Counted from the stretch's first letter, positions 7,150-36,711 are shown. The stretch: DNA of 64,000 nucleotides from a virus (IMGVR_UViG_2721755712_000001), one strand, 5' to 3'. Translations and numbers: made by a program. The notes: a model not told the origin generated them from the letters alone.

Positions 7150-7707
7150 TTACACAATTTCAGAGGGTAATTTAAAAAATCCGTATTTATTACGTGCCTT
7201 AAAGAAGCATTGCATCATTAAGTTTGTGTCATATAAGGCACTATGTGCTTTGGCATGATCGTATATAAAGCCAAGAGAGAAGGCCAATTCTTCAAGACGA
7301 GGACGTTTACCGTCTTCTGTGGCCCACAATCCCGATAACATAGTATCTATAACGGGAACGTCTGGCAGTCTTACTCCATACCCTGAAAACTCGTGTCTAA
7401 TAAATGGTATATCAAACGCTTCGCCGTTATGAGCAACCCACGCACTACATGCCTCCATATAAGCGCCAATTTCGCTGGCATGATTTGACAACAAAGGTTC
7501 AGCTGCCAGCTGTTCTAATGAAATGCCATGAACGGCTTGAGCTTTCGGATCTATGTTTCTGCGAGGGTTAAAACGCATCTCCAGACTATCAATATGTCTC
7601 TGTGTCTCCAGTTCATAGCGGGTAATTGCGATTTCAATAATTTTATGACCAGCAAGGAAATCCAGTCCCGTAGACTCGATATCGATGCCTGCAACAATCG
7701 TTGTCAT
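7150..7707 (-). CDS. DnaQ-like 3'-5' exonuclease (DEDDh)
   Basis: GIDIESTGL Exo I motif, H..A..D Exo III-like region. Confidence 0.75.
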   Translation of the reverse strand: MTTIVAGIDIESTGLDFLAGHKIIEIAITRYELETQRHIDSLEMRFNPRRNIDPKAQAVHGISLEQLAAEPLLSNHASEIGAYMEACSAWVAHNGEAFDIPFIRHEFSGYGVRLPDVPVIDTMLSGLWATEDGKRPRLEELAFSLGFIYDHAKAHSALYDTNLMMQCFFKARNKYGFFKLPSEIV

Positions 7708-7716
7708 CAGAACTCC

Positions 7717-8136
7717 TTACAACTTCTTAGCGCCCTTAAGTAGTGCGCTACGTACAAATTGAGCCGCTTTTTTCAAAGTTTCTTCACTGGTTTCACAGAC
7801 AATCGGATCTTTCCACTTACCTGACGCAGTGTTGAGAATATTGATTTGGTTGCTATCCAGACAAACAGAGATATAAAGCACCGTGCCACCAGCCAGCATC
7901 AAATGCATAGGAAACAGAGGCTTTTTACTGCCTTCACTGAACTGAGACATGGCGATGTTAATGGCTTCACCTACTTGTGCGCCAACAAGCCCCTGCGCAG
8001 TTTCGAATATGGCACGAATAGCCAGACGAGCCTCTCGATCGCTCATAAGAGACCGGGAATGTTCGTCCGCTACACGAATCAAAGCCTCTGTTGTTTTCCG
8101 ATCCAGTTCATCTTCAAGCAACATTTCACTAAACAT
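7717..8136 (-). CDS. hypothetical protein
   Basis: 139-aa ORF. Confidence 0.45.
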   Translation of the reverse strand: MFSEMLLEDELDRKTTEALIRVADEHSRSLMSDREARLAIRAIFETAQGLVGAQVGEAINIAMSQFSEGSKKPLFPMHLMLAGGTVLYISVCLDSNQINILNTASGKWKDPIVCETSEETLKKAAQFVRSALLKGAKKL

Positions 8137-8197
8137 TTTTTATCCTTAACCCATTTTGAGAGTTTTATTGTCGCAATGTCGAAGAGGCGAACAATTT

Positions 8198-8842
8198 CTA
8201 ATGAACGGTCACTCGGCCACAGAACCGGTTTTCTATCTTTTCTACAGCGTTATCTAGCATTCTCATCACTGATCTGGCTCTTGCTTCAACCGTGCGATAT
8301 CGGTTGGAAACGACGAAGGTTTGCAGATCCCCCCTTTGCGGATGCAGGTGAATTTTTGTCAGTTCCCCGCACATCAACGCATCAATACGAGCGACATACA
8401 GACGGTCTAATGATGCTCGTTGTGATCGCAAGTAATCTCGCTCTGAGAGAGCGACTCCCGGGCGTAAGCCAGCAATGGCGTTAAAGTTTGAAATAGCAGT
8501 TTTGTGGCAAAACTTTTCGATATCGAGGGCTAACTCAATACATCGATCTTCATTGGTATGGCCGACCAAATCCAACGTGTAGGCCATAACATCAGCAGGT
8601 GTGCGATCGATAACAAAGCCTTCAACACCACGCGTAAGTAGCTCTATATGCTTTGCTATTTCCATTTGAATCTGAAGCCGCTCATATAGAGGCATAGACT
8701 CACCTACTCGAACACCGAGTCGGCTCATCAAACTTCCGACACCAGCATCCACGTAAGGGATTCCGTAATGTTTGTCGATATATTTTGCCAGGGTTGTTTT
8801 CCCACTGCCCTGAGCACCAGTGATCCCAATCCGGTAATCCAT
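8198..8842 (-). CDS. P-loop nucleotide kinase (putative dNMP kinase)
   Basis: Walker A GAQGSGKTT near N-terminus; sits in nucleotide-metabolism cluster. Confidence 0.5.
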   Translation of the reverse strand: MDYRIGITGAQGSGKTTLAKYIDKHYGIPYVDAGVGSLMSRLGVRVGESMPLYERLQIQMEIAKHIELLTRGVEGFVIDRTPADVMAYTLDLVGHTNEDRCIELALDIEKFCHKTAISNFNAIAGLRPGVALSERDYLRSQRASLDRLYVARIDALMCGELTKIHLHPQRGDLQTFVVSNRYRTVEARARSVMRMLDNAVEKIENRFCGRVTVH

Positions 8843-9318
8843 TACGACCTTCTGTATACGATCTGCGAAAAGCCAGGCTCTTCCTCGCTGGCTCGTTGGG
8901 TAAAAACTGTTTCAACAGGCACAAAGCCTAAATTACGCATCATGCTTGCCGGGAAGAATGCATCGGCGTTTGGCACATCAACGCCGATGTGGGAGAGCCA
9001 AATCTCTTCAACATGCGGCATGAATAGCGAGTAAATTTGTTCCCCGCCAATCACCCACACAGGCTCTGGTAATCGCAACACATCATCCACACCAGCAGGG
9101 TAGAATCCATTTGGTACAAAGCCATGAGAGCGCGTCAAAACGAGGTTATGACGCTCTGGAAGAGGGCGTTTGAGACTTTCCATCGTTTTACGCCCCATAA
9201 CGACAGTGGCGTTTTTGGTGAGTCTCTTAAATAGCTTCAGATCGGTAGAACAACGCCAGGGCAGTTCGTTCGCTATGCCGATCTCATAGTTACGGCCAAC
9301 AGCAGCTATCATCTTCAT
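8842..9318 (-). CDS. frd: dihydrofolate reductase
   Basis: MIAAVGRNYEIG...LPW...VVMGRKT...VIGG, DHFR signature. Confidence 0.85.
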   Translation of the reverse strand: MKMIAAVGRNYEIGIANELPWRCSTDLKLFKRLTKNATVVMGRKTMESLKRPLPERHNLVLTRSHGFVPNGFYPAGVDDVLRLPEPVWVIGGEQIYSLFMPHVEEIWLSHIGVDVPNADAFFPASMMRNLGFVPVETVFTQRASEEEPGFSQIVYRRS

Positions 9319-9728
9319 TTGCTCACCTCATAGATGACCGGTCTATGATGAGAGTCAGCTAAAGCGGCACGGAGTCGAGGATCGTGCACCAGCGCAGCGA
9401 TAAGCAGATCGCCTTTATGCTCCGCTAATGTGCGCTTAATATGCTTCTCATAACTGGTGCCATTCGGTACGAGATGAAGCCAGTCATAATCAACGCCAAA
9501 ATCTTTCAGCCATCGTTTAGTTGGCGCTTCAAGAGTTTCAGAGCGGCTACTGATAAGCACCACTTCAGCCCCTGAGCGAGCAAAACCACGCAACATACGG
9601 CTGGTGGGGAAAATGAGTTCATCACCGGCAATGAGCTGGCCTGCATCCGCGTCAGATACTGATTTACGATGGCTGGCATTTGCCAGCACACCTTCAATTT
9701 CGCATAAGACATACATACCTCTTGCCAT
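9315..9728 (-). CDS. hypothetical protein, possible HAD-like fold with degenerate motif I
   Basis: Start moved to ATG just after thyA stop (TGA-T-ATG). Confidence 0.35.
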   Translation of the reverse strand: MARGMYVLCEIEGVLANASHRKSVSDADAGQLIAGDELIFPTSRMLRGFARSGAEVVLISSRSETLEAPTKRWLKDFGVDYDWLHLVPNGTSYEKHIKRTLAEHKGDLLIAALVHDPRLRAALADSHHRPVIYEVSK

Positions 9729-9729
9729 A

Positions 9730-10833
9730 TCACACCGCCACTGGAACCTTGATCCACGGTAGAGGGTCATAGCCAAGAATTAAAACCTCGTCCCATTTGA
9801 AATCATCCAACTCTGACCATTCATGAGGGAAAATAACGACCGGATCTGAATGCTCTGGAGCCTGTCGTTTCATTAGCTCACACACACCTTCCATGTGGTT
9901 GTTGTACAAATGCACGTCAAAGCCAAAATGCACAAATGCACCGGCCATGTGACCCGTAATCTTCGCGAGAAAATGAGTGAGAATGCCATAGCCAGCAATA
10001 TTGAATGGCATACCAACAAAAGTGTCTACGCTACGCTGTACGAGGCAGGAGTTGAGGATGCGTTTGGGGATTCCAAGTTCATCCAGTTCAGCTTCAGTAA
10101 CACTGCCGTCCATCTCCAGATCGTATAGCATCTTGGTGTAGATAGACTCGTAACCGAGGCGACTGTGTTGAAGACCAATGTCAGTTGCCATCGTTAAACG
10201 GGTTTCAAAATCCAGCTCACGACTCCACAAAGAGAAGACAAAGTGGCAAGGTGGCAGTTTCATATCCTCAAGCTCGCCTACGTTCCATGCGTTAAGCATG
10301 ATGCGACGATCGGTAGGGTTCGTGCGCAGTGTATCGACAATACGCTGTAGCTGATCGATTTCACGGGACAGCACTACGCGATCTTCACTGATACCCAGGT
10401 ATCCCTCGACTTTGTACCCGCGTTCACGGAAAGTAGCGATCTTGCTCAGATATTCACTATGGCTCACGATGCGGGTATCTTCCCATCGACGCCACTGCTT
10501 ACCGTAAACCGGCCCCAAATCGCCATTCTCATCGGCCCATGCATCCCAAATCTTAACGCCGTTATCCTTGAGAAATTGGATGTTGCCCGTGCCTTTCAGA
10601 TACCACTCAAGTTCGACAAGTAGTGGCTTAAGATTTACCGCCTTTCCAGAAATAAGCGGCACAGTCCCACCAGTAAGCATGTAGTAAGAGGGAACGTAGC
10701 AGGTGCTTAAAGTACCAGTGCCTGTGCGATCATCAGCCTGCACGCCGCTTTTAAGCACCGTCTCAATAACTTTTGCATACGATGCGTTTGTTACCTGACC
10801 GTTCGTATGCTCTCGATTCAAAAGGAGTGACAC
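9730..10833 (-). CDS. thyA: thymidylate synthase with internal insertions
   Basis: DRTGTGT, IWDAWADENGDLGPVYGKQWRRW, PPCH, MPFNIAGY; about 100 aa longer than E. coli ThyA. Confidence 0.9.
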   Translation of the reverse strand: MSLLLNREHTNGQVTNASYAKVIETVLKSGVQADDRTGTGTLSTCYVPSYYMLTGGTVPLISGKAVNLKPLLVELEWYLKGTGNIQFLKDNGVKIWDAWADENGDLGPVYGKQWRRWEDTRIVSHSEYLSKIATFRERGYKVEGYLGISEDRVVLSREIDQLQRIVDTLRTNPTDRRIMLNAWNVGELEDMKLPPCHFVFSLWSRELDFETRLTMATDIGLQHSRLGYESIYTKMLYDLEMDGSVTEAELDELGIPKRILNSCLVQRSVDTFVGMPFNIAGYGILTHFLAKITGHMAGAFVHFGFDVHLYNNHMEGVCELMKRQAPEHSDPVVIFPHEWSELDDFKWDEVLILGYDPLPWIKVPVAV

Positions 10834-10910
10834 AAAAACCTCACAAAGATAAGTAATTACTTATTCATCGTGTGAGTTTACATTCATTGAGAGAACAAGA
10901 CCAGACAGAT

Positions 10911-10936
10911 AAAAAAATGGTGGCCATAGGCCACCA
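10911..10936 (-). terminator. rho-independent terminator
   Basis: TGGTGGCCATAGGCCACCA hairpin followed by T-run on minus strand. Confidence 0.6.
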
Positions 10937-11003
10937 AAACGAATAGTCATTCCAGAGTTTTATTACGCATGTTAAATATACACAGATAGATAACTACCTA
11001 CAA

Positions 11004-11873
11004 TTATTTTTTGATCATTCCGTACATTGCTGAGGCTTTAGCTTGCTCAACAAAGGAGGATAAATCGACATCACTATAGGTTGGAGACTTCAGAATCTTT
11101 CCATCGGAAATTCGAAAACCGATCATCTTATCGGTACCATCAGCATGGCGAAATCCCAGGTCTGAAGAGTCGTATTTGCAGTTGGCCACAGCCTGGCGAC
11201 GTTCCTCTACATCAGCAGGCCATAATTTTGTCATGTTAGACCGATGAATTTCGCCAACCAGCTCGACTACATTGATACCGAGGAAATCAGCCAGTCGATA
11301 GGTCATCATGCACGCCACATAGATTTTGTTCATGACACGGCGCAGTTCCTGAATCAGCTCAGAATCCTTAACAGTCTTGTTCTCAAGTTTATCTGCCAGC
11401 TCTTCGAGCATACATGACGCCTCACGAGCTTCCTGAAATGGCATTGCCATATCATCGAAAACAGTGTTACCGGGCACAAAAATTGTCTGCATAAAGCGAT
11501 CAATGCTCTGTTCCTGCGTGTAATAGGTCATGCCGGTAGAAATACCACCTTTGATGGCGACCATCGTACCAACACCAACGTATAAAAAGTCGGCCATTGC
11601 ATCCAGCAGTTGCTCAATATCCCCATTCATTGCGGCTGGAATACCTTCCACTACAGCTTCTTCATGAATCAGGCTTGCACGGAGACGAAGCAGCTCTGGT
11701 GTCGGCATAACGCGTCTCGGATGCTGGAAGAGTTCATGAAACTGATCGACCATCTTGTAAATACTTTCAGTAGCTACACCATGACCTTCATGCAACTCAT
11801 ATGGTTCTGGCTTAAATCCAATGAGACGATCGGTGGCAAGTTTCAGGTGGTCAGTCAGTTTGGTAAAGTTCAT
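11004..11873 (-). CDS. hypothetical protein, possibly MazG-like NTP pyrophosphohydrolase
   Basis: Two E..E...D-type acidic helices (HEEAVVEG...DIEQLLD); weak. Confidence 0.35.
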   Translation of the reverse strand: MNFTKLTDHLKLATDRLIGFKPEPYELHEGHGVATESIYKMVDQFHELFQHPRRVMPTPELLRLRASLIHEEAVVEGIPAAMNGDIEQLLDAMADFLYVGVGTMVAIKGGISTGMTYYTQEQSIDRFMQTIFVPGNTVFDDMAMPFQEAREASCMLEELADKLENKTVKDSELIQELRRVMNKIYVACMMTYRLADFLGINVVELVGEIHRSNMTKLWPADVEERRQAVANCKYDSSDLGFRHADGTDKMIGFRISDGKILKSPTYSDVDLSSFVEQAKASAMYGMIKK

Positions 11874-11950
11874 GCTAGTTTTGTTCCTTCTTAATTCTTG
11901 TGATCCATTGTGGCCCAGCGTTGCCAGGCCACATAATGCTTTGTATCGGT

Positions 11951-13093
11951 TTACAGGTCTGCAAACTGGCTTAGAGAAGCCTTATCCACGGTAGAATCGA
12001 TCTGACCTACCAGATATGTGCTTTGCTCTGCCTCTTGTGGTGCAATTTGCAGTGTGTCGGTTAACAACCACTTGTTCATCCAGACCAGCGGATCTGTGGT
12101 AACTTCTGGAAATAAAGCCTTCAGGCCAAGACGATTCATAGCCAGATTGGTTCGGTATTTTACATAGGTCTTCAGAATATCCGCGTTTAAACCAATCATC
12201 GAACCGTCTTTGAAGAGATAGTCTGCCCAGTTCATTTCTTGTTCGGCGACTGATTTCATGGTGTCGTAAATGACGTTTTCTTCATCAGCAGCAATCTCTT
12301 TCCACAATAAGCCTTCGCGACCGGTACGCATGAAGCGGATCATGCGTTCAGTTCCTTCGCAATGCAGAGCTTCATCACGGGCAATAAAGCGCATAATTTT
12401 GGTGTTACCCTCAAGCAACTTCCGTTCGCCAAAGGCAAACGTACATGCAAAACTTACATAGAAACGGATCGCCTCAAGCGCATTAATGGACACCAACGTG
12501 CGGAAAAGCTGACGGTGCAAAGGGTATGGCTCCCAGCCATATTCATTTACGTACAGACGTTCAAACTCTTTCTCACCTAACGACTGGCGCTCGCAGGTCA
12601 TCCCATAAAGCCTGTCATATTCAGCAGAGATACTGATCGCTCGGTTGATGATTTCTTCATCCGTAACAATACCGTCAAAAACAATACTCGGATCGTCCAC
12701 CATGCCACGAATAATGTGGGTGTAGCTGCGGCTATGGATAGTCTCAGAGAAAGACCATGTTTCAACCCACGTTTCCAGTTCAGGAATAGAGATAAGCGGC
12801 AGAAGCGTTGCATTTGGGCTACGTCCCTGAACTGAATCGAGTAACGTTTGATAACGGAGATTGCTCAGAAAAATGTGACGTTCGTGGTCCCGCAGCTTCG
12901 TGTTGAAGTCGATACGATCACTCGAAATATCAACTTCTTCCGGCCGCCAGAAGAAAGACAATTGACGTTCAATCAACTTTTCAAAATCACGGTATTTTTG
13001 CTGATCGTAACGTGCCACGTTGACAGATTGTCCGAGGAACATAGGCTCTTTGGTTGCATCATTAGCACCCAAACGGAACGTTGAATATGACAT
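11951..13093 (-). CDS. nrdB: ribonucleotide reductase class Ia small subunit
   Basis: FFWRPEEVD and EALH/E..H di-iron ligand regions. Confidence 0.9.
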
Positions 13094-13115
13094 GTGTTTT
13101 TCCTTTTTTGATGTG

Positions 13116-13135
13116 TTTAAACAAGTTGTTATCTT
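13116..13135 (-). promoter_or_regulatory. motif A (AGAAAACAAnTTGTTTAA-like palindrome) upstream of nrdB
   Basis: One of at least six instances 15-25 nt upstream of the AGGAAAAACAC-ATG start context. Confidence 0.5.
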
Positions 13136-13193
13136 ATGTGTTTAAACAAGGCTTACAAATCAAAGATAAGGTGGGGATATACCCCACCATATG

Positions 13194-15509
13194 TCAGATT
13201 TTGCAGGCTCCGTCGCACTCATCTTCTGGCTCGACGGCTACAGCTTGCGTAAGTGGATTCTGCGCTTCGTCGTCATCACGCTTTCCTGCCCCATCTCTGG
13301 TGTTGTGGTAGTAAAGCGTTTTAACTCCCATCTTGTAGGCGAGAAGCAAATCTGACAGTAGCGTCATCATTGGGACTTTATCGCCTTCAAAGCGAGAAGG
13401 GTCATAGTTGGTATTGGCTGAAATAGCCTGGTCAAAGAACTTCTGGATGATCGCCACCTTTGTCAGATAGCCGCGGTTGTCCGGCATATCCCACAGGTAT
13501 TCATACTGTTCCTTCAGTTTTTCAAACTCAGGCACGACCATCTTAACGATGCCGTCCTTAGAAGATTTCACCGACACCGGTCCACGAGGCGGTTCGATGC
13601 CGTTGGTGGAATTAGTGATCTGGCTGGAAGTCTCGCATGGCATTTGTGCCGTCAGTGTGGAGTTGCGAAGGCCGTATTTTGCAATACGTTCACGCAGTTC
13701 TTCCCACGGCATCTTTAACTCAAAGTTGGTTTCGCCACTTTCGTCTAATGAAGAACGGTAATGGTCGATCGGCAACTGACCAATTGCGTACTTGGTCTGC
13801 TCAAACCAGTCACACTCACCTTTTGCTTCAGCAAGTCGGCAGCTGGCATCAAGAAGGTAATACTGGATAGCTTCGAACGTTTCATGCACCAGTTTATTGC
13901 CAGCGGTATCAGAATAACGAACGCCATTCTTTGCCAGGTAATAAGCAAAGTTGGTTACACCAATTCCCAAGCTACGACGAGCTTTGGCAGGCACTTCGGC
14001 TGCCTCCATCGGATAGTCTTGATAATCCAGTAACGAATCCAGTGCAGCAACGGCATAGAACGCCACCTCTTTAAGAGACTCCAGTGAACGGATGGCTCCG
14101 AGGTTAAAAGCGGATAAAGTGCATAGCGCGATCTCACCGTTCGGGTCGTCGGTAAATGCCAGTGGACGAGTGGGTAGAGTGATCTCCATGCACAGGTTTG
14201 ACTGGCGAACAGGTGCAAGAGCAGGAATGAAAGCGCCATGCTCGTTAATATGATCGACGTTCGCAATATAAATTCGGCCCGTGGACGCTCGTTCCTGCAT
14301 CAGAGATGAGAACAGCTCAATGGCAGGTACTGACTTCTTGCGAATTGAATCATCGGCTTCGTATTTATGGTACAGCTTTTCAAACAGCTCCTGGTCTGTG
14401 AAGAAGGCTTCGTACATATCAGGCACATCATGCGGGCTGAACAGAGTGATGTTCTCGCTTCTGACGAGTCGACGGTACATTAGACGGTTACTCATGACGC
14501 CGTAATCAAGATGGCGAACGCGGTTTTCATCAATACCACGGTTATTTTTCACCACCAGCAGACTTTCAACTTCAAGATGCCAGATCGGGTAAAACGCTGT
14601 TGCTGCGCCACCACGAACACCACCTTGCGAACAAGATTTAACAGCCGTCTGGAAATGCTTCAGGAATGGAATAACTCCAGTATGGGTGGCTTCACCATTG
14701 CGGATCTCGCTGCCCAGCGCACGGATACGGCCAAAACCAATACCAATTCCAGCACGACGTGAAACGTAGTCGATAATTGCGGCTGAAGCTGCACTAATCC
14801 CTTTCAGACTATCGCCAGACTCAATCAGCACACAACTGGAGAACTGACGGGTTGGAGTACGGACGCCGGCCATGATTGGTGTGGGCAGAGACAGTTTGAA
14901 CGTACTTGTAACGTCATAGAAACCTTTGACCATCTCCATACGTGTTTTGCCAGCGCAGTCGTCTTCCCAATTCTGGAACAGACACATGCCTACCAGCATA
15001 TAGATATGTTGCGGCCCCTCATGAATCTCACCAGTAACACGGTTTTGAACGAGGTATTTGCTTTGCAACTGCACCGTAGCTGCATAGCCAAAAAGATCGT
15101 CACGTTTCGGCTTAATGTAATTGCCGAGTTCTTCGATCTCTTCAAACGAATAATGTGTCAGCAAATCCTTGTCATAAACGCCCTTGTTAACGTTCTTGAC
15201 AATGTGTTGGTAGAAGTTCGGATAGTCGTAACGACCGAAGGCATCTTTGCGGATTTTAAAAATGTTCAGGCGGGCAGCCACCTGTGAGTAATTTGGTGCT
15301 TCTGGTGAGATCAAATCAGCGGCAGATTTAACCAAAGCCTCATGCAACTGGCTGGTGGTCATCCCATCAAAAATGCTGGCCGCAGCTCCCATTGCTACAG
15401 CGGATGCGCTTACACCACGAATGCCTTCTACGCCATACATTACGACGCGGTTGTATTTTTCTTCGGATAACGGCTCTGTTTGGCCGTTACGTTTTACGAT
15501 GCTTATCAT
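13194..15509 (-). CDS. nrdA: ribonucleotide reductase class Ia large subunit
   Basis: SNLCMEI active-site region, C-terminal ECDGACKI tail closely matching E. coli NrdA. Confidence 0.95.
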   Translation of the reverse strand: MISIVKRNGQTEPLSEEKYNRVVMYGVEGIRGVSASAVAMGAAASIFDGMTTSQLHEALVKSAADLISPEAPNYSQVAARLNIFKIRKDAFGRYDYPNFYQHIVKNVNKGVYDKDLLTHYSFEEIEELGNYIKPKRDDLFGYAATVQLQSKYLVQNRVTGEIHEGPQHIYMLVGMCLFQNWEDDCAGKTRMEMVKGFYDVTSTFKLSLPTPIMAGVRTPTRQFSSCVLIESGDSLKGISAASAAIIDYVSRRAGIGIGFGRIRALGSEIRNGEATHTGVIPFLKHFQTAVKSCSQGGVRGGAATAFYPIWHLEVESLLVVKNNRGIDENRVRHLDYGVMSNRLMYRRLVRSENITLFSPHDVPDMYEAFFTDQELFEKLYHKYEADDSIRKKSVPAIELFSSLMQERASTGRIYIANVDHINEHGAFIPALAPVRQSNLCMEITLPTRPLAFTDDPNGEIALCTLSAFNLGAIRSLESLKEVAFYAVAALDSLLDYQDYPMEAAEVPAKARRSLGIGVTNFAYYLAKNGVRYSDTAGNKLVHETFEAIQYYLLDASCRLAEAKGECDWFEQTKYAIGQLPIDHYRSSLDESGETNFELKMPWEELRERIAKYGLRNSTLTAQMPCETSSQITNSTNGIEPPRGPVSVKSSKDGIVKMVVPEFEKLKEQYEYLWDMPDNRGYLTKVAIIQKFFDQAISANTNYDPSRFEGDKVPMMTLLSDLLLAYKMGVKTLYYHNTRDGAGKRDDDEAQNPLTQAVAVEPEDECDGACKI

Positions 15510-15517
15510 GTATCACC

Positions 15518-15582: not shown

Positions 15583-16152
15583 TCAAATGAGAGACTTAAG
15601 AACATCGCGCACCTGGCGGAACTGATCTGTTTGCATACCGGTATGGATGGCAGCCACCGCATCAGCCAAATGTTCGTTTTTGTTCACGAGAACATCCTGT
15701 CCAGATTGCTTACGACGCAGCCACGGTGCTTTAGGGTGTTTTTTCGTAGCCCACTGGATAATCTCTTCTTTCGATGTAGTAAGTTTATTGCCGACAAAAT
15801 GCTTGATTTCGTTTGGAGTAACCTGGATTAATGGCTTATCCACACACGCAAGTACACCGATACAAATACCGTAAGACGTCTGCGAACGAGAGTTTTGGCT
15901 CCCAACCGGTAGCTCACAAAAAACCATATTTGCCTTATCAATGATTGGCTTCGCAACACGCCATATTTCACTGGCGCGGCGCAGATCGTCACTGTTCACA
16001 CGAACGGTCTTTTTGTTACTCCCCGCTTTAGTCTCAACAAGAGTAAGGCCGTGAATCTCAAGTTCGTCCGTCTCAAGGTCTAAAGTGCCCACAGCAAGCC
16101 CAAAGTTGCTCATTGAGGGATCAACACCAACTACGCTGATTTTTTTACTCAT
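15583..16152 (-). CDS. RuvC-like Holliday junction resolvase
   Basis: ISVVGVDPS N-terminal Asp motif, size about 190 aa. Confidence 0.6.
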   Translation of the reverse strand: MSKKISVVGVDPSMSNFGLAVGTLDLETDELEIHGLTLVETKAGSNKKTVRVNSDDLRRASEIWRVAKPIIDKANMVFCELPVGSQNSRSQTSYGICIGVLACVDKPLIQVTPNEIKHFVGNKLTTSKEEIIQWATKKHPKAPWLRRKQSGQDVLVNKNEHLADAVAAIHTGMQTDQFRQVRDVLKSLI

Positions 16153-16161: not shown

Positions 16162-16905
16162 TTACCATGTTCCCCATATAGGGTTTTCCAATAATCTCGC
16201 CTCCAACGAATTGGCTACTATTGCCGTTTGCAACGTTGGTTGGGGATAGTTTGCAAAGTCTGAATACTCATTTTCCTGCGTGACACGTTTATCTGCGGCA
16301 TGTTTAACACCACTTGCTATGAAATGACGCATGATGCCCAATAGCCTCCGACTGTCTGCACTATCGTTTGCTAAAACATGAGGGAGCTGAAGTTCGATTT
16401 CTACCATTTCTCCATACTTACCAACAAACTGTAGTTTGTCCGCACTGTACTTTTTATCCCTCCTTTGGATAAGGAAACCAGTAAAAGCATCACCTGGCGA
16501 TGCCAAACTATCCACCCGCTTATTGGCAAGTCGAATAAGGTTCGTGAAAGCCATACAGTGATGCGCACCCATTCCCCCAAAGAACCCTTCGCTATTAATG
16601 TTAAGATCTTCAGTTTCATGGGATGCAATAAACCCAGGCCCGACGTTGGGAAGATATCCCCCCTCAACAAAAGGATTAATCAGGATCGGCGCAATACATC
16701 CAGGTGGTAGTGATTTCAAACTTTGCATCAATGGCGTCTCGGATATTAGACCAAGCAACGCGGCGAATTGTACTCCGTCAATATTGTTGCTTCCCCACAG
16801 AATACGTGGAGCCGCACCATTGGAAGTATGCCCATTGATCAGTTTTATCGACTGCATCACTGCAAATACCTGCAAAAACTGCGAGCGGCTTAATTTAAAC
16901 GACAT
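16162..16905 (-). CDS. hypothetical protein
   Basis: 247-aa ORF. Confidence 0.45.
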   Translation of the reverse strand: MSFKLSRSQFLQVFAVMQSIKLINGHTSNGAAPRILWGSNNIDGVQFAALLGLISETPLMQSLKSLPPGCIAPILINPFVEGGYLPNVGPGFIASHETEDLNINSEGFFGGMGAHHCMAFTNLIRLANKRVDSLASPGDAFTGFLIQRRDKKYSADKLQFVGKYGEMVEIELQLPHVLANDSADSRRLLGIMRHFIASGVKHAADKRVTQENEYSDFANYPQPTLQTAIVANSLEARLLENPIWGTW

Positions 16906-22824: not shown

Positions 22825-22829
22825 CCCAA

Positions 22830-23300: not shown

Positions 23301-23312
23301 TGGTTGGTGCTA

Positions 23313-28390: not shown

Positions 28391-28392
28391 GA

Positions 28393-28665
28393 TCAGGCTC
28401 CTTTTGTTTCGTTGATTCGTTTTAAAGCGGCGGATTCGTTGAATACAATCGCATCGTGATTAAGGAGTCTGGATACACGAGCGAGGATTTTTACGACCTG
28501 CTCGCTGACTAATCCAAACTCGCGATCTGTCGCTTTCATTCCGGCAGCGCCTAGAATTGACGGCAGTGCGATGACAGCGTACTCACCGTGATAAAAGACA
28601 ATCTCTTTTGCCAGTTGGGTGGGGGTGGTTGTAGCGCCATTAATAATCGATTTAAGCATTAGCAA
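28393..28665 (-). CDS. hypothetical protein
   Basis: 90-aa ORF. Confidence 0.4.
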   Translation of the reverse strand: MLMLKSIINGATTTPTQLAKEIVFYHGEYAVIALPSILGAAGMKATDREFGLVSEQVVKILARVSRLLNHDAIVFNESAALKRINETKGA

Positions 28666-29603
28666 TACCTTTCGAATGGAAGAACAAACACTTCAAGGTC
28701 TTCAAGGAACGAACGGAAATTCAGCTCGTAGCACAGTTGCTCGAATGCTTTCACGTCACGATTGCCTTTGATTGTTTCGATTTCGGTAGGCGGAAACTTC
28801 GTCTCAATCAGGTTCATTAGCGTGATGTTTCTCTTGAACGCTTCGAGCATTCGACAGCCTGTTTTCTCGTTGAAGGCATTCTTCGCTAGTTTGTTGAAGG
28901 CGGTCTTATGACGCCCTTTATTAACCACGATTGAGCCGTCGTTGATGCCGCGTACCATCGTTGCGACACTTCCCCATTCATGCAGCAGCTCTTTCGCACC
29001 GCCAGCACCAATGCCACCAACACCGCTAATGTTGTCCGAGTTATCGCCTTGTAATGCTTTTGCTTCCAAAAATGCGCGAGGCGTGGCGAATCCTGTCAGC
29101 TCCGCAAATTGCTCAAAATTAACCTGCTTGTTTTTGGCGTCTTCACGCAGGCTTACCCAGCTTACGTTTTCACGAACTAACTGAAGCCAGTCGCTATCGC
29201 CTGTTAACAGATAGATGTGTTCAACGGTTGGCTGCGGTGCCATGCGGGATACCAGCAGCCCGGCCAGATCATCCGCTTCTGCATCTTTTGCAATGAGTTG
29301 GGTAACTCCAAGCGCGGTCATCATTTTGAGGATGTATGGCTTCTGGATAGCAAAGCCTTCCTTCATCTTTTTCATATCAGGATCGTCGTCGCGATTTGCT
29401 TTGTAGTCCGGGTAAAAGTCGCGACGCTTGTCACTAAATCCATCCCAAAGAATCATAGGTCGGGCATGGAGGATGGAGGCATAACGACGGACGTTCTTAA
29501 CAAAGCCGAAAGCAGCCTGTACTTCCATTTCGCCGTTGTGCAATTTGTCAGATTGTTGGTGGTAATAACCCAGGCTATTGCCATCTACGAAGAGATAATT
29601 CAC
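28659..29603 (-). CDS. 5'-3' exonuclease / flap endonuclease
   Basis: LFVDGNSLGYY N-terminus, acidic metal-binding clusters, H3TH GVGGIGAGGAKELL; start moved to GTG after GGAAGGAA because track start lies inside a terminator hairpin. Confidence 0.8.
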   Translation of the reverse strand: MNYLFVDGNSLGYYHQQSDKLHNGEMEVQAAFGFVKNVRRYASILHARPMILWDGFSDKRRDFYPDYKANRDDDPDMKKMKEGFAIQKPYILKMMTALGVTQLIAKDAEADDLAGLLVSRMAPQPTVEHIYLLTGDSDWLQLVRENVSWVSLREDAKNKQVNFEQFAELTGFATPRAFLEAKALQGDNSDNISGVGGIGAGGAKELLHEWGSVATMVRGINDGSIVVNKGRHKTAFNKLAKNAFNEKTGCRMLEAFKRNITLMNLIETKFPPTEIETIKGNRDVKAFEQLCYELNFRSFLEDLEVFVLPFERYC

Positions 29604-29618
29604 CGGTACATTCCTTCC

Positions 29619-29647
29619 AAAAAGTAAGGCGTCCGTAGACGCCTTAC
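29619..29647 (-). terminator. rho-independent terminator (GGCGTCC family)
   Basis: GTAAGGCGTCCGTAGACGCCTTAC plus T-run after SSB-like stop. Confidence 0.6.
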
Positions 29648-29663
29648 TGGTCACGTAATGGGA

Positions 29664-30692
29664 TTACAGAGAGTCCAGCTCTCTCAGTAGGTCATCCAGA
29701 CCTTCATCTTCCGTCGCAGATGCGGTTGCTACAGATGTCGCTGCGACTGCTTCAGACTCTTTGACTGATACGGCAACGGCAGCGGAACTTGCCTCTGGTT
29801 TAAATTCAGTTTCAACGGCACGGAGGATTTCTTCATCAACCAGACTGGTTGGTTCAGAAGCCGGTGTGTGCGCGGTTGCTACAGCCGTCGCTCCTTCTGT
29901 ATGACCAGTGACAGAGCCAAATCCAGGTAGTGCCGCAGCCGATGTTTTCGCGGTTGAGGAAATTGCTGGTGCAGATGCTGCGGCAGTTGGTGCAGCGATG
30001 CCAATCAGACGACCCATAGTGCGAACTGTCGACAGAAGACGAGTTTCATCAGCCTGATTTGCGTATGCGATCAGATCATGCTGGGTGTTCCAGAATTTAT
30101 CTTCGATATCGCCTTTGTAGACTTTACGCTTAGGCGAGACGTCATATTTGGTATCGCGACCAGAGCCAGTACGTTTAATCAGGAATGCGTAGCCTTCCTC
30201 TTTGCTCAGTGGATTGCCGATATCATCAGCGATGTCTTCGGTGATTGCTTTGCAGATATCATCGAATACAGTAGACGGCAGCTCGATTAACTGGCATTTC
30301 TCAGCATCTGCGAAATCCTCACGAGCAGAAAGAATGCCGTTGACCAGGTAGCGAGGAGTGGCACGCATTTGACCGATGCGTTCTTCCATTGCTTTGTTAC
30401 CCTTGTGACGAGCGCGACCTTCCATCACCATTTCGCATAGCTGACAAGCGCGACCGTGAGTATGTTGCTCACAAATATAAGCGTTGGTTGCTTCTTTACC
30501 TTCCTCGTTCTGATACTTAACGTAGTGCATACCGAAAGTCTGGAAGAACTTACCGTTTGGGTCGTCTTTATTCGGGAAGATGCGGATATAGTTGACGCCG
30601 TCTTTTAAGCGAGTCAGATCAACGTTGTTGCCACGTTTGGCGGCAATGTCTTCACGAGTTTTGTTAAGCAAATCAAGTAATGTCTTAGACAT
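29664..30692 (-). CDS. single-stranded DNA-binding protein (gp32-like)
   Basis: C..H..C..C zinc-type cluster (CEQHTHGRACQLCE), Ala/Ser/Thr-rich linker, acidic C-terminal tail. Confidence 0.5.
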   Translation of the reverse strand: MSKTLLDLLNKTREDIAAKRGNNVDLTRLKDGVNYIRIFPNKDDPNGKFFQTFGMHYVKYQNEEGKEATNAYICEQHTHGRACQLCEMVMEGRARHKGNKAMEERIGQMRATPRYLVNGILSAREDFADAEKCQLIELPSTVFDDICKAITEDIADDIGNPLSKEEGYAFLIKRTGSGRDTKYDVSPKRKVYKGDIEDKFWNTQHDLIAYANQADETRLLSTVRTMGRLIGIAAPTAAASAPAISSTAKTSAAALPGFGSVTGHTEGATAVATAHTPASEPTSLVDEEILRAVETEFKPEASSAAVAVSVKESEAVAATSVATASATEDEGLDDLLRELDSL

Positions 30693-30809: not shown

Positions 30810-31241
30810 TCAACGGGGAGTAATAAAGCGTTCAGAGCCTAATCGCTCTAATTCAACGATGGCCATCTTTGACGCCTGAACGATCATGTCTCGGCGATGC
30901 GAAAAGGCGGCGACAGCATGTTTGTATATGTCTGCGATGTGCCGTGCTTCATCCAACTTCTGCCGTTTAGACAGATACTGTGGGTTTGTTTTAACCTTAG
31001 CGTCCAGTACAGACTCGTTGAACTTAATGCCGTTCATACTCAAGTTCTTACGCTCTGTGTCGTATAGCTTTGCTTCAACAGCTTCAAGGTTAAGTTTTGC
31101 CTCTGCGACATCTCGATCTGCCTGCGCTAGTTTTGACCCATACTCCATTAAAAGCCGTGGCTGTTTACGCCATACTTCCTCAAGGTTGTCGCGGTCGAAC
31201 TCCAGATCGGCCATGATTTTAGAAAAAATATCAGTGTTCAC
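30810..31241 (-). CDS. hypothetical protein
   Basis: 143-aa ORF. Confidence 0.45.
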   Translation of the reverse strand: MNTDIFSKIMADLEFDRDNLEEVWRKQPRLLMEYGSKLAQADRDVAEAKLNLEAVEAKLYDTERKNLSMNGIKFNESVLDAKVKTNPQYLSKRQKLDEARHIADIYKHAVAAFSHRRDMIVQASKMAIVELERLGSERFITPR

Positions 31242-31495: not shown

Positions 31496-31720
31496 ATGAA
31501 GCAACATCCGAATAAGCATATTCAAGCAGCCATTGACTATGCATTAAGTAAAGGCTGGATCTGGGTAGCTGCTGGTGGTGCTGCACATTGTTTTTGCAGA
31601 CTGCGATGCGGTAATCCAGAAGGTGAACACAAAACTCACCAAATGAGCGTATGGTCGACTCCGGGTAATCCCGAAAACCATGCCAAACAGATCAAACGAA
31701 TGGTTGATCGTTGTAAATGA
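31496..31720 (+). CDS. hypothetical protein
   Basis: 74-aa plus-strand ORF. Confidence 0.4.
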   Translation: MKQHPNKHIQAAIDYALSKGWIWVAAGGAAHCFCRLRCGNPEGEHKTHQMSVWSTPGNPENHAKQIKRMVDRCK

Positions 31721-31780
31721 TTTCAAGGCGGCATTAGCCGCCTTTTGCAGAAACTGTCCAACTATCTTCAAAGGAAAACT

Positions 31781-32344
31781 ATGGCGCTTTATAACTTCAC
31801 TCTGACGCTCTCAGGCGTATCGTATGAGACGGAAGGACTGGAAGACGCGCTGTACCAAAACGGCTGTGACGATGCGCTAATTTGCGCATATGGAAACTCC
31901 GTCTATGTAGAATTTGACCGCGAAGCACAATCACTTGATGCAGCTATCGCATCTGCGGTCGACAATATTGAATCAGCCGGTATCGGTGCAATTGTTGAAT
32001 CCGTCGACTCGGCTCTTGTGGGCTTAAGCGATATCGCGGAACTGACAGACCTGTCTCGCCAGGCAGTGGCGTTGCTCAAAGACGGTAAGCGCGGAAGCGG
32101 CGACTTCCCTTGCCCTGTACAACGCATAAAAGGCCAGTCTCCTCTCTGGGATTGGGCTGATGTGGCTGAATGGCTCATGAATAACGGACGACTTAAAGAG
32201 GGCGATCAAATTGTCCAAAATGCCCGAACTTTGAGTAAATGGAATCTGGCGCTTCGAAACAGCGTCTCGAAAGATTTCAACGAAATAGAGCAAATTGCGG
32301 AGAAACTGATTAAACGCCGCAAAGATATTGCGAAATGCGCATAA
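31781..32344 (+). CDS. hypothetical protein
   Basis: Start moved to ATG after AAGGAAAA. Confidence 0.4.
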   Translation: MALYNFTLTLSGVSYETEGLEDALYQNGCDDALICAYGNSVYVEFDREAQSLDAAIASAVDNIESAGIGAIVESVDSALVGLSDIAELTDLSRQAVALLKDGKRGSGDFPCPVQRIKGQSPLWDWADVAEWLMNNGRLKEGDQIVQNARTLSKWNLALRNSVSKDFNEIEQIAEKLIKRRKDIAKCA

Positions 32345-33162: not shown

Positions 33163-33190
33163 ATAAACCCGCCAACAGGCGGGTTTTCTT
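33163..33190 (+). terminator. rho-independent terminator after cspA, abutting dnaE stop
   Basis: CCCGCCAACAGGCGGG plus TTTTCTTT. Confidence 0.6.
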
Positions 33191-33192
33191 TA

Positions 33193-36100
33193 TTACTTAT
33201 TTATTGTCTCCGCGATATCAGCCAGAATGGCCTCCAGTCGCTCTCCTTCTTCCGGTCGGAAGTACAGGATATTCGGGTTAAATCCGTAGAAGACGGTTGC
33301 ATCAAGCTCTGGGAAGTACTCCTTACGACCAATCAGATCTGATGGTTTACTCTTATTGTTAAATAGTGCGGTTGAACGACTACCACACGTCAAAATGTAG
33401 GTTGGTCGTACAAGATTAATTTCTTCCCGCATAAAGTCTGTGAACTGGCCTATCTCGTCTTTGGTATAGTCTTTCTCTTTGTCCTTAACCTTCTTACAAA
33501 CACCCGTGACATAAAGATCGCCCATGCGCAGATCTCCAACTGTCAGTAGTTTTGCCTTAAAGTCGTCGTATCCGTTCTCCATGAAGTAGCCGGTACGAGC
33601 GTCATTGCCGTTCGCATTGTCCAGAATGATCATGATTTTGGGTTTAATACCAATAGTCGGGCGTATCAACTCCTCACCCAAGCCCATTTCAGCCGCCATA
33701 CGTGTCATGAGTACGTTGATTTCGGCAGAACGCTTAGGATTCATTTCGAACGGACGTGATGCTTTAACAGCGTCAATGATGAGATTGCCCATCAGCTCAG
33801 CCTGGTCGCGCAGTCGTTCAGGATCAGTTGCTGGCAGACTGCCTGGCTCAATTGACGCAAAAGCCCCTACTTTATGAAGCGACTCGCGTACACGACTGTT
33901 ACATGCACGCTTCTCGACCGCTTCATCGAATTGTGCCACTGACTCGAATTTGCCACCAACTTTCTCACGCGCACGCATAATTGCCTGACAACCATTTTCA
34001 GAACAGCCTTTCACAGCAGAGAATGGCGCATACAGTGCCTGACTGCCGTCTTCGAGTGTGCGGATCTCAATTCGGTTAGATGACACATTAACGTCTGGTG
34101 GCAATACGCGAATGCCATAGGTCAGCGCATCCTTCACCAGCCCCTGATGCTTATCCTCGCCCAGAATGGTGAGCGCAGCTGCGAAGAACTCAGCAGGGTA
34201 GTGCGTCTTTAGCCACATAGACTGATAACTGATTAAAGAATAAGCAACGGAGTGTGATTTATTGAACTGATAGGCTCCGTTTTTCTCAAATGCGGTCCAG
34301 ATCTCCTTCGCTTTCATCTCTGATAGCCCTGGATGTGACGCTGTAACGCGTACTGCGTTTATAGGTAGTTTTGCGCCGTGCTCAAGTGCCTCTTCGACAG
34401 TTTTCAGAGTTCCGTCTTCGCATTTAAAATGTTCCGCACGGTGAATGCGCTGTGTAGTGCCATCTTCCAGCTCAACGTCTATCCAGCCAGCTTGAGCCTG
34501 AACGATGAACTTCTCGCCCATGCTCTTCATTTTTTCCATGTTCTTCTTACCGATTGCGGAACGCACAGCGTCAGCTTCAGCCATTGTGAAGCCGGCAAGC
34601 AATCGAGTCGCGTTCATCGTCTGTTCCTGATAGAGAATCACGCCATTTGTTTCCGCGGTAAGTTCATCAAGAACGGGGTGTAATGATTCCGGCGTCATAA
34701 AGCCTTTGGCGACAGAAACATAGTCATCCAACATGCCTGATTGAATTGGCCCCGGCCGGAAGAGCGCAGTTGTAGCGACGACCGTTTTAAAGCTCATTGG
34801 CTCAATTCCACCACCTAAATCTTTAAGCAGCTTGCGCATTGGGCCTGATTCAAGCTGGAAAACACCTTGAGTGTACCCAGCAGCAAAACCATCCAGCACC
34901 TTGCGATCTTCAAGAGAAATGGCATCAAGATTGATATCTTCACCTGTGTTCTCTTTTATGTAGCGTTTTGCACTATCGAGCAAATCGAGAGTTGCCAGGC
35001 CAAGCACGTCCAGCTTAATTAGGCCCATAGCCTCGCAGTAACGCTTGTCAAATGCGATACAACGCGCGTCACCACGGCGCTCAACCGGTGTACGTTCTGT
35101 CAGAGGAACACCTGCTACGATCATCCCTGCCGCATGTCTACCAAAGCCACGCATAAGGCTTTGTAACTTGCAGGCTGCATTGAATGCATCAGGATATTTT
35201 GTTGCGTATTTGTCGAGACTTGCCAGTTGTTCGCGCAGCTCTTCCAATGGAAGGCTATCATCCTCGACGTTCTTCAGTTCTTTTGATACCGCCATATCTG
35301 CGGACTCCACACCATAAATACGAGCGGTATCACGTAGTGCAGAGGCTGCGCCCAGGTAGGTGAAGTTCGGAATACCCGCAACGTAATCTTCGCCGTAGCG
35401 TTCATTCAGATACTCGATCACCTCATGGCGACGTGCCTGGCTGAAGTCCAAGTCCGCATCCGGCAAGTCGAGACGCTCAGGGTTGATGAAACGCTCAAAC
35501 AGAAGACCGTGACGGATTGGGTCGACGTTGGTTATGCCTATGCACCACGCCACCAGAGAACCGGCAGAGGAACCACGACCAGGCCCAACGGGAATGCCAG
35601 TTTCACGACTATGATTCATCAGATCGCGTACCATCAGGAAGTAACCACAAAATCCCAGGCGAGTCAGCGTGTCCATTTCGTACTTTAGCCGCTCAACATA
35701 AACCCTGTTCTCAGAAGCAGGTGGTGTGTAGCCAAACTCTTTTGTGGTAAGACGTTTACGCAGCCCTGCAACAGCCAGTTTCATAAGCGTTGCAGGCTCG
35801 TCGTCTGCCATCTTTGGCAGTGCTGGCGGCAATTCATGCCAGCGCCATGTGCAGGCATCGATAATGGTATCCTGCGTTGTTGAGGCCATTGCAGCTGTTA
35901 CCGGCACATCCATGCGAACGGAGAAGGCTTTAAGCGCCTCAAGGAGATGGCGGCGACCATTGACGGCGTTATCTCGCTGGTGGGGGATACGCAGACGATG
36001 CGGCTGGTCGATTTTGATGTTGTTCGTAACCATGTGCGCAATGTCTTTAATGTCTGCATCGTCGATCGATTCGTAATAAGCGGGATAGAACGCCACTGGC

Positions 36101-36711
36101 TCTATTTTCAATGCGCTGGCGACTTTCATCGCCCGGACGTTAATCTGGTCGTAGAATGGGGTAGGGTGCGGATAAACCACACTATAGAAGTTGTCTTTTC
36201 CACCCGCTGTAATCAGTGTGCTTATGATTTTTGCAAAATCGTTGCGTTGGAACACGCTACCGATGTCGGAAGTAAGCAGGATGATGTTGCCTTTGGCATA
36301 TGTAGAAACCAACTGTTCGAGCGAGAGACGCGGTACAAAGTAGAACTGTTCTCGTGTGTTGGCCACCGTCATTAGTTCGCAGATGTCGCGATATCCTTGC
36401 TCATTTTTAATTAGAGCGGTAAACGAGTAGTTACGTCCCCGCTCTAATGATTCCATACATCTCATAGATTCTTTAGCAAGTTTAGCCCGGTGCTCGTATG
36501 TGGGATCATCAACAATGTTTAGTTTCACACCACAAATAACCGCCATGTCGTCACCAGCGGCACGTTGTAGTGGAATAACGCTCGCAATATTCATGCTATC
36601 TGCTGAAATTACAGCGGTGTAGCCAGCTTCTCTGGCAATCTTCACCGCGTTTTCTGCTTTTAGAGCCGACTCCCCAAGTGAGAAGTCAGTTCGAACCATC
36701 AGTGCTTTCAT
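33193..36711 (-). CDS. dnaE: DNA polymerase III alpha-type replicative polymerase (DnaE family)
   Basis: N-terminal PHP-like region; GPGRGSSAGSLVAWCIGITNVDP...LLFERFINPER core; 1172 aa. Confidence 0.9.
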   Translation of the reverse strand: MKALMVRTDFSLGESALKAENAVKIAREAGYTAVISADSMNIASVIPLQRAAGDDMAVICGVKLNIVDDPTYEHRAKLAKESMRCMESLERGRNYSFTALIKNEQGYRDICELMTVANTREQFYFVPRLSLEQLVSTYAKGNIILLTSDIGSVFQRNDFAKIISTLITAGGKDNFYSVVYPHPTPFYDQINVRAMKVASALKIEPVAFYPAYYESIDDADIKDIAHMVTNNIKIDQPHRLRIPHQRDNAVNGRRHLLEALKAFSVRMDVPVTAAMASTTQDTIIDACTWRWHELPPALPKMADDEPATLMKLAVAGLRKRLTTKEFGYTPPASENRVYVERLKYEMDTLTRLGFCGYFLMVRDLMNHSRETGIPVGPGRGSSAGSLVAWCIGITNVDPIRHGLLFERFINPERLDLPDADLDFSQARRHEVIEYLNERYGEDYVAGIPNFTYLGAASALRDTARIYGVESADMAVSKELKNVEDDSLPLEELREQLASLDKYATKYPDAFNAACKLQSLMRGFGRHAAGMIVAGVPLTERTPVERRGDARCIAFDKRYCEAMGLIKLDVLGLATLDLLDSAKRYIKENTGEDINLDAISLEDRKVLDGFAAGYTQGVFQLESGPMRKLLKDLGGGIEPMSFKTVVATTALFRPGPIQSGMLDDYVSVAKGFMTPESLHPVLDELTAETNGVILYQEQTMNATRLLAGFTMAEADAVRSAIGKKNMEKMKSMGEKFIVQAQAGWIDVELEDGTTQRIHRAEHFKCEDGTLKTVEEALEHGAKLPINAVRVTASHPGLSEMKAKEIWTAFEKNGAYQFNKSHSVAYSLISYQSMWLKTHYPAEFFAAALTILGEDKHQGLVKDALTYGIRVLPPDVNVSSNRIEIRTLEDGSQALYAPFSAVKGCSENGCQAIMRAREKVGGKFESVAQFDEAVEKRACNSRVRESLHKVGAFASIEPGSLPATDPERLRDQAELMGNLIIDAVKASRPFEMNPKRSAEINVLMTRMAAEMGLGEELIRPTIGIKPKIMIILDNANGNDARTGYFMENGYDDFKAKLLTVGDLRMGDLYVTGVCKKVKDKEKDYTKDEIGQFTDFMREEINLVRPTYILTCGSRSTALFNNKSKPSDLIGRKEYFPELDATVFYGFNPNILYFRPEEGERLEAILADIAETINK

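Follow-up and report, generated by a model that had tools for sequence, protein, structure and literature searches.

A predicted C-family DNA polymerase with a uracil-DNA glycosylase-fold C-terminal domain and a separately encoded epsilon-like exonuclease in an SSU5/Cyrano-type phage-plasmid

Escherichia phage Cyrano, an SSU5-like temperate siphovirus, is the plasmid pLF82 of Escherichia coli LF82; it is present at about 5.5 copies per cell, is inducible with ciprofloxacin, and in the lysogen its replication genes are absent from the genes reported to be expressed (PMC9928086). A C-family DNA polymerase variant called "DnaEX," in which the OB fold and the C-terminal domain are replaced by an archaeal-type uracil-DNA glycosylase (UDG; PF03167), has been described as an extra polymerase of certain Yersinia pestis and Salmonella enterica strains (Timinskas et al., 2014, NAR 42:1393, PMC3919608). 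In this study, we analyzed a 64,000-nucleotide stretch of viral DNA, IMGVR_UViG_2721755712_000001 (hereafter the window), which encodes a DnaE-type polymerase of identical architecture together with a set of replication genes. Records of Cyrano/SSU5-type elements already annotate a "DNA polymerase III alpha subunit," an "Exonuclease, PolIII subunit epsilon," a helicase, a primase, a ligase, and CobS/CobT-like genes; the gene set, from public annotation, and the UDG-DnaE architecture, from the literature, are both already known. We take the Y. pestis and S. enterica copies of DnaEX to be those of the plasmids pMT1 and pHCM2. Both plasmids fall within the SSU5 supercommunity in a phage-plasmid survey. 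We propose that the window belongs to a temperate phage-plasmid that probably combines a RepA-based plasmid mode with its own lytic C-family replication module, in which the polymerase would be proofread in trans and its UDG-fold domain would serve template binding or processivity.

Its sequence places the window in an SSU5/Cyrano-type temperate siphovirus that is maintained in E. coli as a plasmid of low copy number, a phage-plasmid. Megablast with the large open reading frame (ORF) encoding DnaE gave 96% identity to Escherichia phage Cyrano, 93% to CMS-2020a and PhiR41_1, 84% to Salmonella phage SSU5, and 80% to Klebsiella relatives. When the whole window was compared by blastn, it matched the Cyrano locus in collinear blocks of 95–99% identity, mostly 97–99%, and its gene order is the same as that of Cyrano, SSU5, and pHCM2-type phage-plasmids. 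In addition to this similarity and synteny, the window carries the plasmid replication and partition genes and the siphovirus genes expected of an SSU5-like phage-plasmid, and a gene for an integrase-family recombinase is also present. On both sides of repA are ATCCACTATAGAGAG-type iterons in 21-nucleotide phase (spacing of about 21 nucleotides inside the arrays), which is a typical iteron plasmid origin. The first-pass annotation of this DNA had set its replication enzymes against those of lytic coliphages; that framing does not hold, as RepA, the iterons, the ParA-like ATPase, and the identity with Cyrano point to a temperate phage-plasmid. The window differs from Cyrano in an extra IS21-type insertion, in a divergent version of a 51-amino-acid insertion in DnaE, and in some accessory genes around 42.5–45.8 kb.

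The 1172-amino-acid product of the large ORF had been called a DnaE-type polymerase in the first-pass annotation, and the domain searches agree. Pfam models PF07733 (E 1e-73), PF17657 (E 9e-44), PF02811 (PHP; 49.9 bits, cutoff 26.4), and PF14579 ((HhH)2; 59.6 bits, cutoff 25.6) are matched, as are the NCBIfam superfamily model TIGR00594 (626 bits, cutoff 434) and, over the full length, phrog_405. All DnaE equivalog models stay below their cutoffs (NF004226, 674 against 1002 bits). The protein is 33% identical to E. coli DnaE and about equally similar to the alpha subunits of Thermus, Mycobacterium, and E. coli (E 6e-121 to 3e-108), which indicates that dnaE is not a recent capture of a host gene. 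The palm residues D418, D420, and D568 align to D401, D403, and D555 of the E. coli enzyme and are invariant in 44 full-length family members. The large ORF is thus predicted to encode a polymerase of the C-family whose catalytic Asp triad is intact.

A check of the PHP domain, the OB fold, and the clamp-binding motifs, as the first-pass annotation had proposed, gave a mixed outcome: the PHP domain is present in degenerate form, and neither an OB fold nor a canonical clamp motif was found. The nine canonical PHP metal ligands are H, H, D/H, H, E, H, C/H, D/N, and H, at which E. coli alpha has R10, H12, D19, F44, D69, H83, G134, D201, and R203 (Barros et al., 2013, PMC3666897). The corresponding positions of the window DnaE are M5, R7, E14, S39, K63, S96, a loop deletion, P210, and Y212, so that none of the nine is canonical, whereas E. 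coli alpha has lost five; the domain is equally degenerate in most of the family. The loss of all nine ligands indicates that this DnaE would be without proofreading of its own. No tau-binding domain and no OB fold follow the (HhH)2 domain, although 97% or more of C-family polymerases have an OB fold (Timinskas et al., 2014, PMC3919608). Like the E. coli Pol III core, the element combines a C-family polymerase, a non-catalytic PHP domain, and a separate DEDDh exonuclease, with the Asp triad and the (HhH)2 domain kept. In contrast to E. coli alpha, the OB fold, the tau-binding domain, and the QADMF motif are gone and a UDG fold is added, and the element encodes no theta, beta, or clamp loader.

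The C-terminal residues of DnaE (about 1010–1172) match the NCBIfam model of UDG family 4 (E 5e-7). A profile built from 38 homologues matches the solved family-4 UDGs 4zbx (E 3e-22), 1vk2, and 1ui0, as well as UdgX, and a second profile of the domain, from seven sequences, reached E 5e-20 against family-4 UDGs. The domain is thus predicted to have the alpha/beta UDG fold. Its motif A reads LDNAN in the window instead of the canonical GEAPG (GE(A/G)PG), with a family consensus of x-D-x-P-x; the uracil-recognizing Asn is replaced by Gly1070 (S, G, A, or T in the family); and motif B, canonically HP(S/A), reads FNP in the window, with His replaced by Asn, and [NST]P in the family. No conserved cysteines were found in the family at the aligned positions of the 4Fe-4S ligands. 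In the pocket, a different set of residues is family-conserved (D1031, [E/D]1037, Y1067, T1069, K1073, K1076, and P1146), which suggests that the domain is under selection. UDG domains are likewise joined to viral replicases in phage PolA enzymes (SPO1-, SP15-, and N4-like) and in the vaccinia E9-A20-D4 complex. Judging from these PolA and D4 cases and from the processivity proposal of Kazlauskas and Venclovas (2011), the most likely role of the UDG-fold domain would be to hold template DNA or add processivity rather than to provide a link to the host clamp loader.

The separately encoded DnaQ-like exonuclease of the first-pass annotation was also recovered. Its top match among solved structures is E. 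coli epsilon (E 9e-11), its best NCBIfam match is proteobacterial epsilon, and it belongs to phrog_192, "DNA polymerase exonuclease subunit" (E 6e-51). The catalytic residues D9, E11, D99, H155, and D160 align to those of epsilon and do not vary among five orthologues, which come from four groups of phages. Each of the 31 complete phage genomes in GenBank with a UDG-type DnaE (Escherichia, Salmonella, Klebsiella, Pseudomonas nickie-like, Rhizobium RHEph10-like, Stenotrophomonas, and Xanthomonas phages) also has an orthologue of the exonuclease, at 37–100% identity, and the same 31 genomes provide the 31 best matches of the exonuclease query. In four genomes compared (nickie, hairong, SSU5, and RHEph10), the exonuclease gene lies about 25–27 kb downstream of dnaE. 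Variant PHP domains generally accompany a separate epsilon-type proofreader (Barros et al., 2013, PMC3666897), a rule that the dead PHP domain and the co-inherited exonuclease fit. Together, the PHP ligand loss and the co-occurrence in 31 of 31 genomes support a putative role of the exonuclease as trans proofreader for DnaE.

A short C-terminal tail, G-[FLY]-[FVY]-x-x-P, is common to exonuclease orthologues of four phage groups; it reads YGFFKLP in the window and might be a docking peptide that substitutes for the long tether of epsilon. Nine nucleotides upstream of the exonuclease gene is an ORF of 139 amino acids, whose product could be a partner of the exonuclease; Pseudomonas phage nickie (BLASTP E 2e-4) and Stenotrophomonas ANB28 have ORFs of weak similarity at the corresponding place.

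With the C-terminal domain of DnaE as query, a word-indexed homologue search returned nine matches, and the family became visible only by an exhaustive HMMER search, which found 140 proteins among 1.84 billion representatives. Two main length classes were identified, one of about 1080–1170 amino acids (full polymerase) and one of about 380–400 amino acids ((HhH)2 plus UDG); the latter is the C-terminal half of a split dnaE. In one relative (locus L004), dnaE is split into parts of 790 (N-terminal) and 385 (C-terminal) amino acids with a 184-amino-acid ORF between them, and in another (locus L086) an intein with a LAGLIDADG endonuclease occupies the same site. The 51-amino-acid insertion of the window DnaE, between the fingers and (HhH)2 domains, was found in one of 44 family representatives and occurs in SSU5-type members only. 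Apart from this insertion (about 30% amino acid identity to Cyrano, with flanks at 97–99% DNA identity), all of dnaE aligns with Cyrano DNA. This site of dnaE looks like a hot spot for mobile elements.

Carriers of UDG-type DnaE include the SSU5 group, Pseudomonas phage nickie and relatives, Rhizobium phage RHEph10 and relatives, two Stenotrophomonas phages, and Xanthomonas phage JGB6; the named phages have genomes of about 84–122 kb. A conserved gene order leads from helicase, primase, two ORFs, ligase, CobT-like, CobS-like, and sometimes a small ORF to DnaE, and continues with an ORF of about 160 amino acids, gp32, flap endonuclease, RecA, SbcD, and SbcC. This order is kept in distant relatives in which the C-terminal domain of the polymerase is only 24–32% identical. 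The published account of DnaEX is one sentence without phage context, whereas here the variant defines a whole lineage of phages of roughly 105–120 kb; in this lineage the polymerase is often split or intein-bearing, and the tail-less exonuclease goes with it in every case.

All genes of the replication set listed in the first-pass annotation are present in the window. The interval to which they had been assigned, 7150–36711, spans the exonuclease gene through the end of dnaE and includes the flap endonuclease; the genes for RNase HI, ligase, primase, and helicase lie outside it. The description of this set as a bacterial-style replisome applies in part: polymerase, exonuclease, DnaB-like helicase, and DnaG-like primase are of bacterial type, but the single-stranded-DNA-binding and recombination proteins are of T4 type, the ligase is ATP-dependent, and no clamp or clamp loader was found. 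Searches of the window ORFs, including unannotated ones, with Pfam, PHROGs, and NCBIfam detected no beta clamp, clamp loader, or theta, and none of the three is annotated among the 126 features of the complete Cyrano genome. UvsW helicase is also annotated in Cyrano. Because of the missing clamp and clamp loader, the ATP-dependent ligase, and the gp32-type protein with its UvsY-like, RecA, SbcCD, and RuvC-like companions, the module is best described, from its gene content, as a hybrid of a bacterial-type polymerase, exonuclease, helicase, and primase with proteins of T4-type recombination-dependent replication.

These features suggest how the element may replicate. In the plasmid state, RepA and the iterons would start replication, presumably with host enzymes. 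In the lytic state, as suggested by gene content and synteny, the element's own module would drive DNA synthesis, which is consistent with the absence of replication genes from the set reported as expressed during Cyrano lysogeny. The DnaB-like helicase would open the fork and the DnaG-like primase would prime it, and the divergent C-family polymerase, with its Asp triad intact, would synthesize DNA under editing in trans by the epsilon-like exonuclease of 185 amino acids. The gp32, UvsY-like, RecA, SbcCD, and RuvC-like proteins may conduct T4-style recombination-dependent replication, while RNase HI, flap endonuclease, and ATP-dependent ligase would mature the Okazaki fragments. Deoxynucleoside triphosphates (dNTPs) would be supplied by ribonucleotide reductase, ThyA, dihydrofolate reductase, and the kinase-like protein.

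Several observations weigh against this proposal. A literature search found no biochemistry of the UDG-type DnaE family. The exonuclease stops at the end of the epsilon catalytic domain, with no counterpart of E. coli epsilon residues ~181–243, and thus, unlike the E. coli protein, has no Q-linker, no QTSMAF clamp motif, and no C-terminal segment for alpha binding; its gene is 26 kb away from dnaE in the window, and the co-occurrence in 31 of 31 genomes may just mirror whole-genome synteny within one phage lineage. Some catalytic activity of the UDG-fold domain is possible in view of its conserved pocket. In addition, a family-conserved QxEL[ML]PGL segment of DnaE (residues 970–977) resembles a clamp-binding peptide, and use of the host beta clamp by DnaE is possible.

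The last point underlies an alternative that we regard as somewhat unlikely, namely that DnaE works as a hijacked bacterial holoenzyme that gains processivity from the host beta clamp, loaded by the host clamp loader, while the UDG fold serves on the side, for instance in uracil sensing or repair. The phage encodes no clamp despite a genome of about 108 kb, DnaE retains the (HhH)2 domain known as "beta-binding," and the Q-x-E-L-[M/L] stretch at residues 970–974 is similar to a clamp pentapeptide. However, the site homologous to E. coli QADMF (920–924) reads NVLMT (residues 999–1003), shows no conservation across the family, and is part of a predicted helix. Members of the UDG-type family end with the last UDG helix and have no C-terminal clamp motif, and the absence of the tau-binding domain leaves no link to the clamp loader. 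The Q970-x-E-L-[M/L]-P-G-L segment itself was considered as an internal beta-clamp motif and rejected: it aligns with a non-clamp helix of E. coli alpha (R895-AALM-899) instead of QADMF and is predicted to be helical by AlphaFold2 (AF2).

It is doubtful that the DEDDh protein is instead a free-standing nuclease for repair, turnover of host DNA or RNA, or counter-defence. In addition to its missing tether and clamp motif and its distance from dnaE, this protein falls below every curated DnaQ cutoff (TIGR01406, 66 against 223 bits; TIGR00573, 53 against 71.5; PRK05711, 72 against 196) and also matches generic DEDDh models, including a CRISPR-associated PADLOC model at 87 bits. On the other hand, epsilon is its best match in both the Protein Data Bank (PDB) and NCBIfam, the annotation of phrog_192 is that of a polymerase subunit, its co-inheritance with the PHP-dead DnaE is complete, and the element would have no proofreader without it. 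That DnaE is an accessory polymerase, error-prone (DnaE2-like) or devoted to plasmid maintenance, while host Pol III replicates the phage genome is improbable: NF004225, a model for "error-prone DNA polymerase," gives 403 bits, and the UDG variant was left ungrouped as an additional polymerase (Timinskas et al., 2014, PMC3919608), but DnaE scores higher with the DnaE1 model (674 bits), has no ImuA/ImuB partners, belongs to a strictly conserved module with the helicase, primase, ligase, gp32, flap endonuclease, and RecA genes, including in phage nickie, and is the only polymerase of the element.

A pair of CobS/CobT-like genes directly upstream of dnaE, noted in the first-pass annotation, is present, with PF07728 and PF11775 matched and coordinates adjoining dnaE. 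Both proteins miss the cobaltochelatase equivalogs by a wide range (TIGR01650 for the CobS-like protein, 85 against 559 bits; TIGR01651 for the CobT-like protein, 69 against 759 bits), and no CobN partner was found among the window proteins. They are predicted to be a MoxR-type AAA+ and VWA pair and no true cobaltochelatase. The position beside dnaE is kept in all relatives examined (loci L085–L089 and L092), two of which (L087 and L088) have an ORF with a sigma70_r2 domain between the CobS-like gene and dnaE that the window lacks; because the whole module is syntenic, this adjacency alone does not indicate a functional link. PADLOC defence models had no match among the CobS/CobT-like and neighboring proteins, and a literature search found no functional study of the pair in the SSU5-type phage lineage.

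Returning to the proposal of an own lytic module, we also put forward, tentatively and with clear doubt that its three parts hold jointly, an extension to a self-contained C-family replicase that is not plugged into the host clamp-loader machinery. The degenerate UDG fold would have replaced the OB and tau-binding domains and would grip or scan the template ahead of the active site, as a possible parallel, in the C-family, to UDG-PolA fusions and to the E9-A20-D4 holoenzyme of poxviruses. The tail-less exonuclease would dock by a new interface, perhaps its G-Phi-Phi-x-x-P tail or the 139-amino-acid ORF, and the CobS/CobT-like AAA+/VWA pair would be a replisome accessory and no cobalamin gene pair. 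Coordinates of the features are listed in Table 1.

Table 1. Features of the 64,000-nucleotide window, with positions counted from its first nucleotide (aa, amino acids).
Feature	Position	Strand	Basis or remark
RNase HI	3809-4453	-	PF00075 E 2e-45; NF001236 220 bits, cutoff 160
DEDDh 3'-5' exonuclease, epsilon-like, 185 aa	7150-7707	-	PF00929 E 2.5e-21
C-terminal tail of exonuclease	7150-7200	-	YGFFKLP
139-aa ORF	7717-8136	-	phrog_5373
dNTP supply block	8198-15509	-	seven genes, kinase-like to NrdA
Kinase-like protein	8198-8842	-	
Dihydrofolate reductase (DHFR)	8842-9318	-	
HAD phosphatase	9315-9776	-	
ThyA	9730-10833	-	
MazG-like protein	11004-11873	-	
NrdB	11951-13093	-	
NrdA	13194-15509	-	
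RuvC-like Holliday junction resolvase	15583-16152	-	phrog_159 E 3e-57
SbcC	16895-18811	-	with SbcD, nuclease analogous to T4 gp46/47
SbcD	19041-20126	-	with SbcC, nuclease analogous to T4 gp46/47
Plasmid-mode origin, RepA and flanking iterons	21218-23303	+	iteron arrays 21218-21726 and 22828-23303
RepA, Rep3 family	21769-22824	+	PF01051, PF21205
RecA/UvsX-type recombinase, intein-interrupted	26051-28390	-	PF00154, Intein_splicing, LAGLIDADG_3
Flap endonuclease (5'-3' exonuclease)	28659-29654	-	PF02739, PF01367
T4 gp32-type single-stranded-DNA-binding protein	29664-30692	-	PF08804 E 2e-67
UvsY-like recombination mediator	30810-31241	-	phrog_231 E 2e-4, phrog_2058; Cyrano annotation
HicA/HicB toxin-antitoxin pair	~31500-32344	+	from Cyrano annotation
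DnaE-type (C-family) DNA polymerase, 1172 aa	33193-36711	-	Pfam PHP, DNA_pol3_alpha, DNA_pol3_finger, HHH_6
UDG family-4-fold C-terminal domain of DnaE (predicted), aa ~1010-1172	33196-33684	-	in place of OB and tau-binding domains
51-aa insertion of DnaE, aa 741-791	34339-34491	-	between fingers and (HhH)2 domains
PHP domain of DnaE, aa 1-290	35842-36711	-	metal site lost; nine ligand positions read
CobS-like MoxR-type AAA+ ATPase (AAA_5)	36892-38127	-	PF07728
CobT-like VWA protein	38223-40331	-	PF11775 E 3e-82
YafO-family toxin ORF	42552-42962	-	
Four tRNA genes	45184-45837	-	Ser-tga, Thr-tgt, Tyr-gta, Asn-gtt
ATP-dependent DNA ligase	47427-48749	-	PF01068; phrog_114 E 2e-125
DnaG-like (Toprim) primase	50139-51389	-	TIGR01391 E 3e-9; phrog_47 E 4e-65
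DnaB-family replicative helicase	51399-52739	-	PF03796 E 4e-13; phrog_19 E 6e-88
C-terminal half of phrog_2500 ORF	52783-53151		
IS21-type element	53118-55072	+	IstA-like 53204-54226, IstB 54223-55005
ParA-like ATPase	56944-57612		
Tail fibre gene	60383-63049		

Several further observations concern individual genes of the window. The recA gene is interrupted by an intein of 423 amino acids (Cys65 to SHN487, followed by Thr488) that carries a LAGLIDADG homing endonuclease; the junctions GPPSAGK|C...SHN|T place the insertion inside the Walker A loop (GPPSAGK|T). RecA proteins without the intein, of 343–372 amino acids, are encoded by the relatives L004, L086, L089, and nickie. ThyA, at 367 amino acids, is about 100 amino acids longer than typical, and its family model is matched in several pieces; its orthologue in the Cyrano record is labelled "ThyX," which is the wrong family. 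A hydroxymethylase function of this long ThyA, leading to modified DNA, was ruled out, as the protein passes the thymidylate synthase equivalog TIGR03284 and its gene is adjacent to that of dihydrofolate reductase.

The IS21-type element cuts a conserved ORF just upstream of the helicase gene, of which the C-terminal half remains, and the insertion could alter expression of the helicase-primase operon. The Cyrano record has three tRNAs (Ser, Thr, and Asn) in the region that matches the four of the window. Toxin-antitoxin genes also lie within the replication region: an ORF for a YafO-family toxin and, between the genes for the UvsY-like protein and DnaE, HicA/HicB as annotated in Cyrano.

Relative to public annotation and the literature, this study adds the complete loss of PHP ligands, structural confirmation of the UDG fold by profile matches with an analysis of its motifs, the lineage-wide co-inheritance with a tail-less epsilon-like exonuclease, and a probable mobile-element hot spot in dnaE. 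These additions sharpen a testable and unsurprising hypothesis, that of a clamp-loader-independent C-family replicase. Phage-plasmids of the SSU5 type occur commonly in clinical Enterobacteriaceae and are able to carry genes for resistance, which makes their replication machinery of practical interest. The family provides a natural test case for the rule linking PHP nuclease loss with a separate epsilon-type proofreader, and its polymerase would represent, after the A-family and the B-family, a third independent recruitment of the UDG fold to a replicative polymerase, in this case of the C-family.

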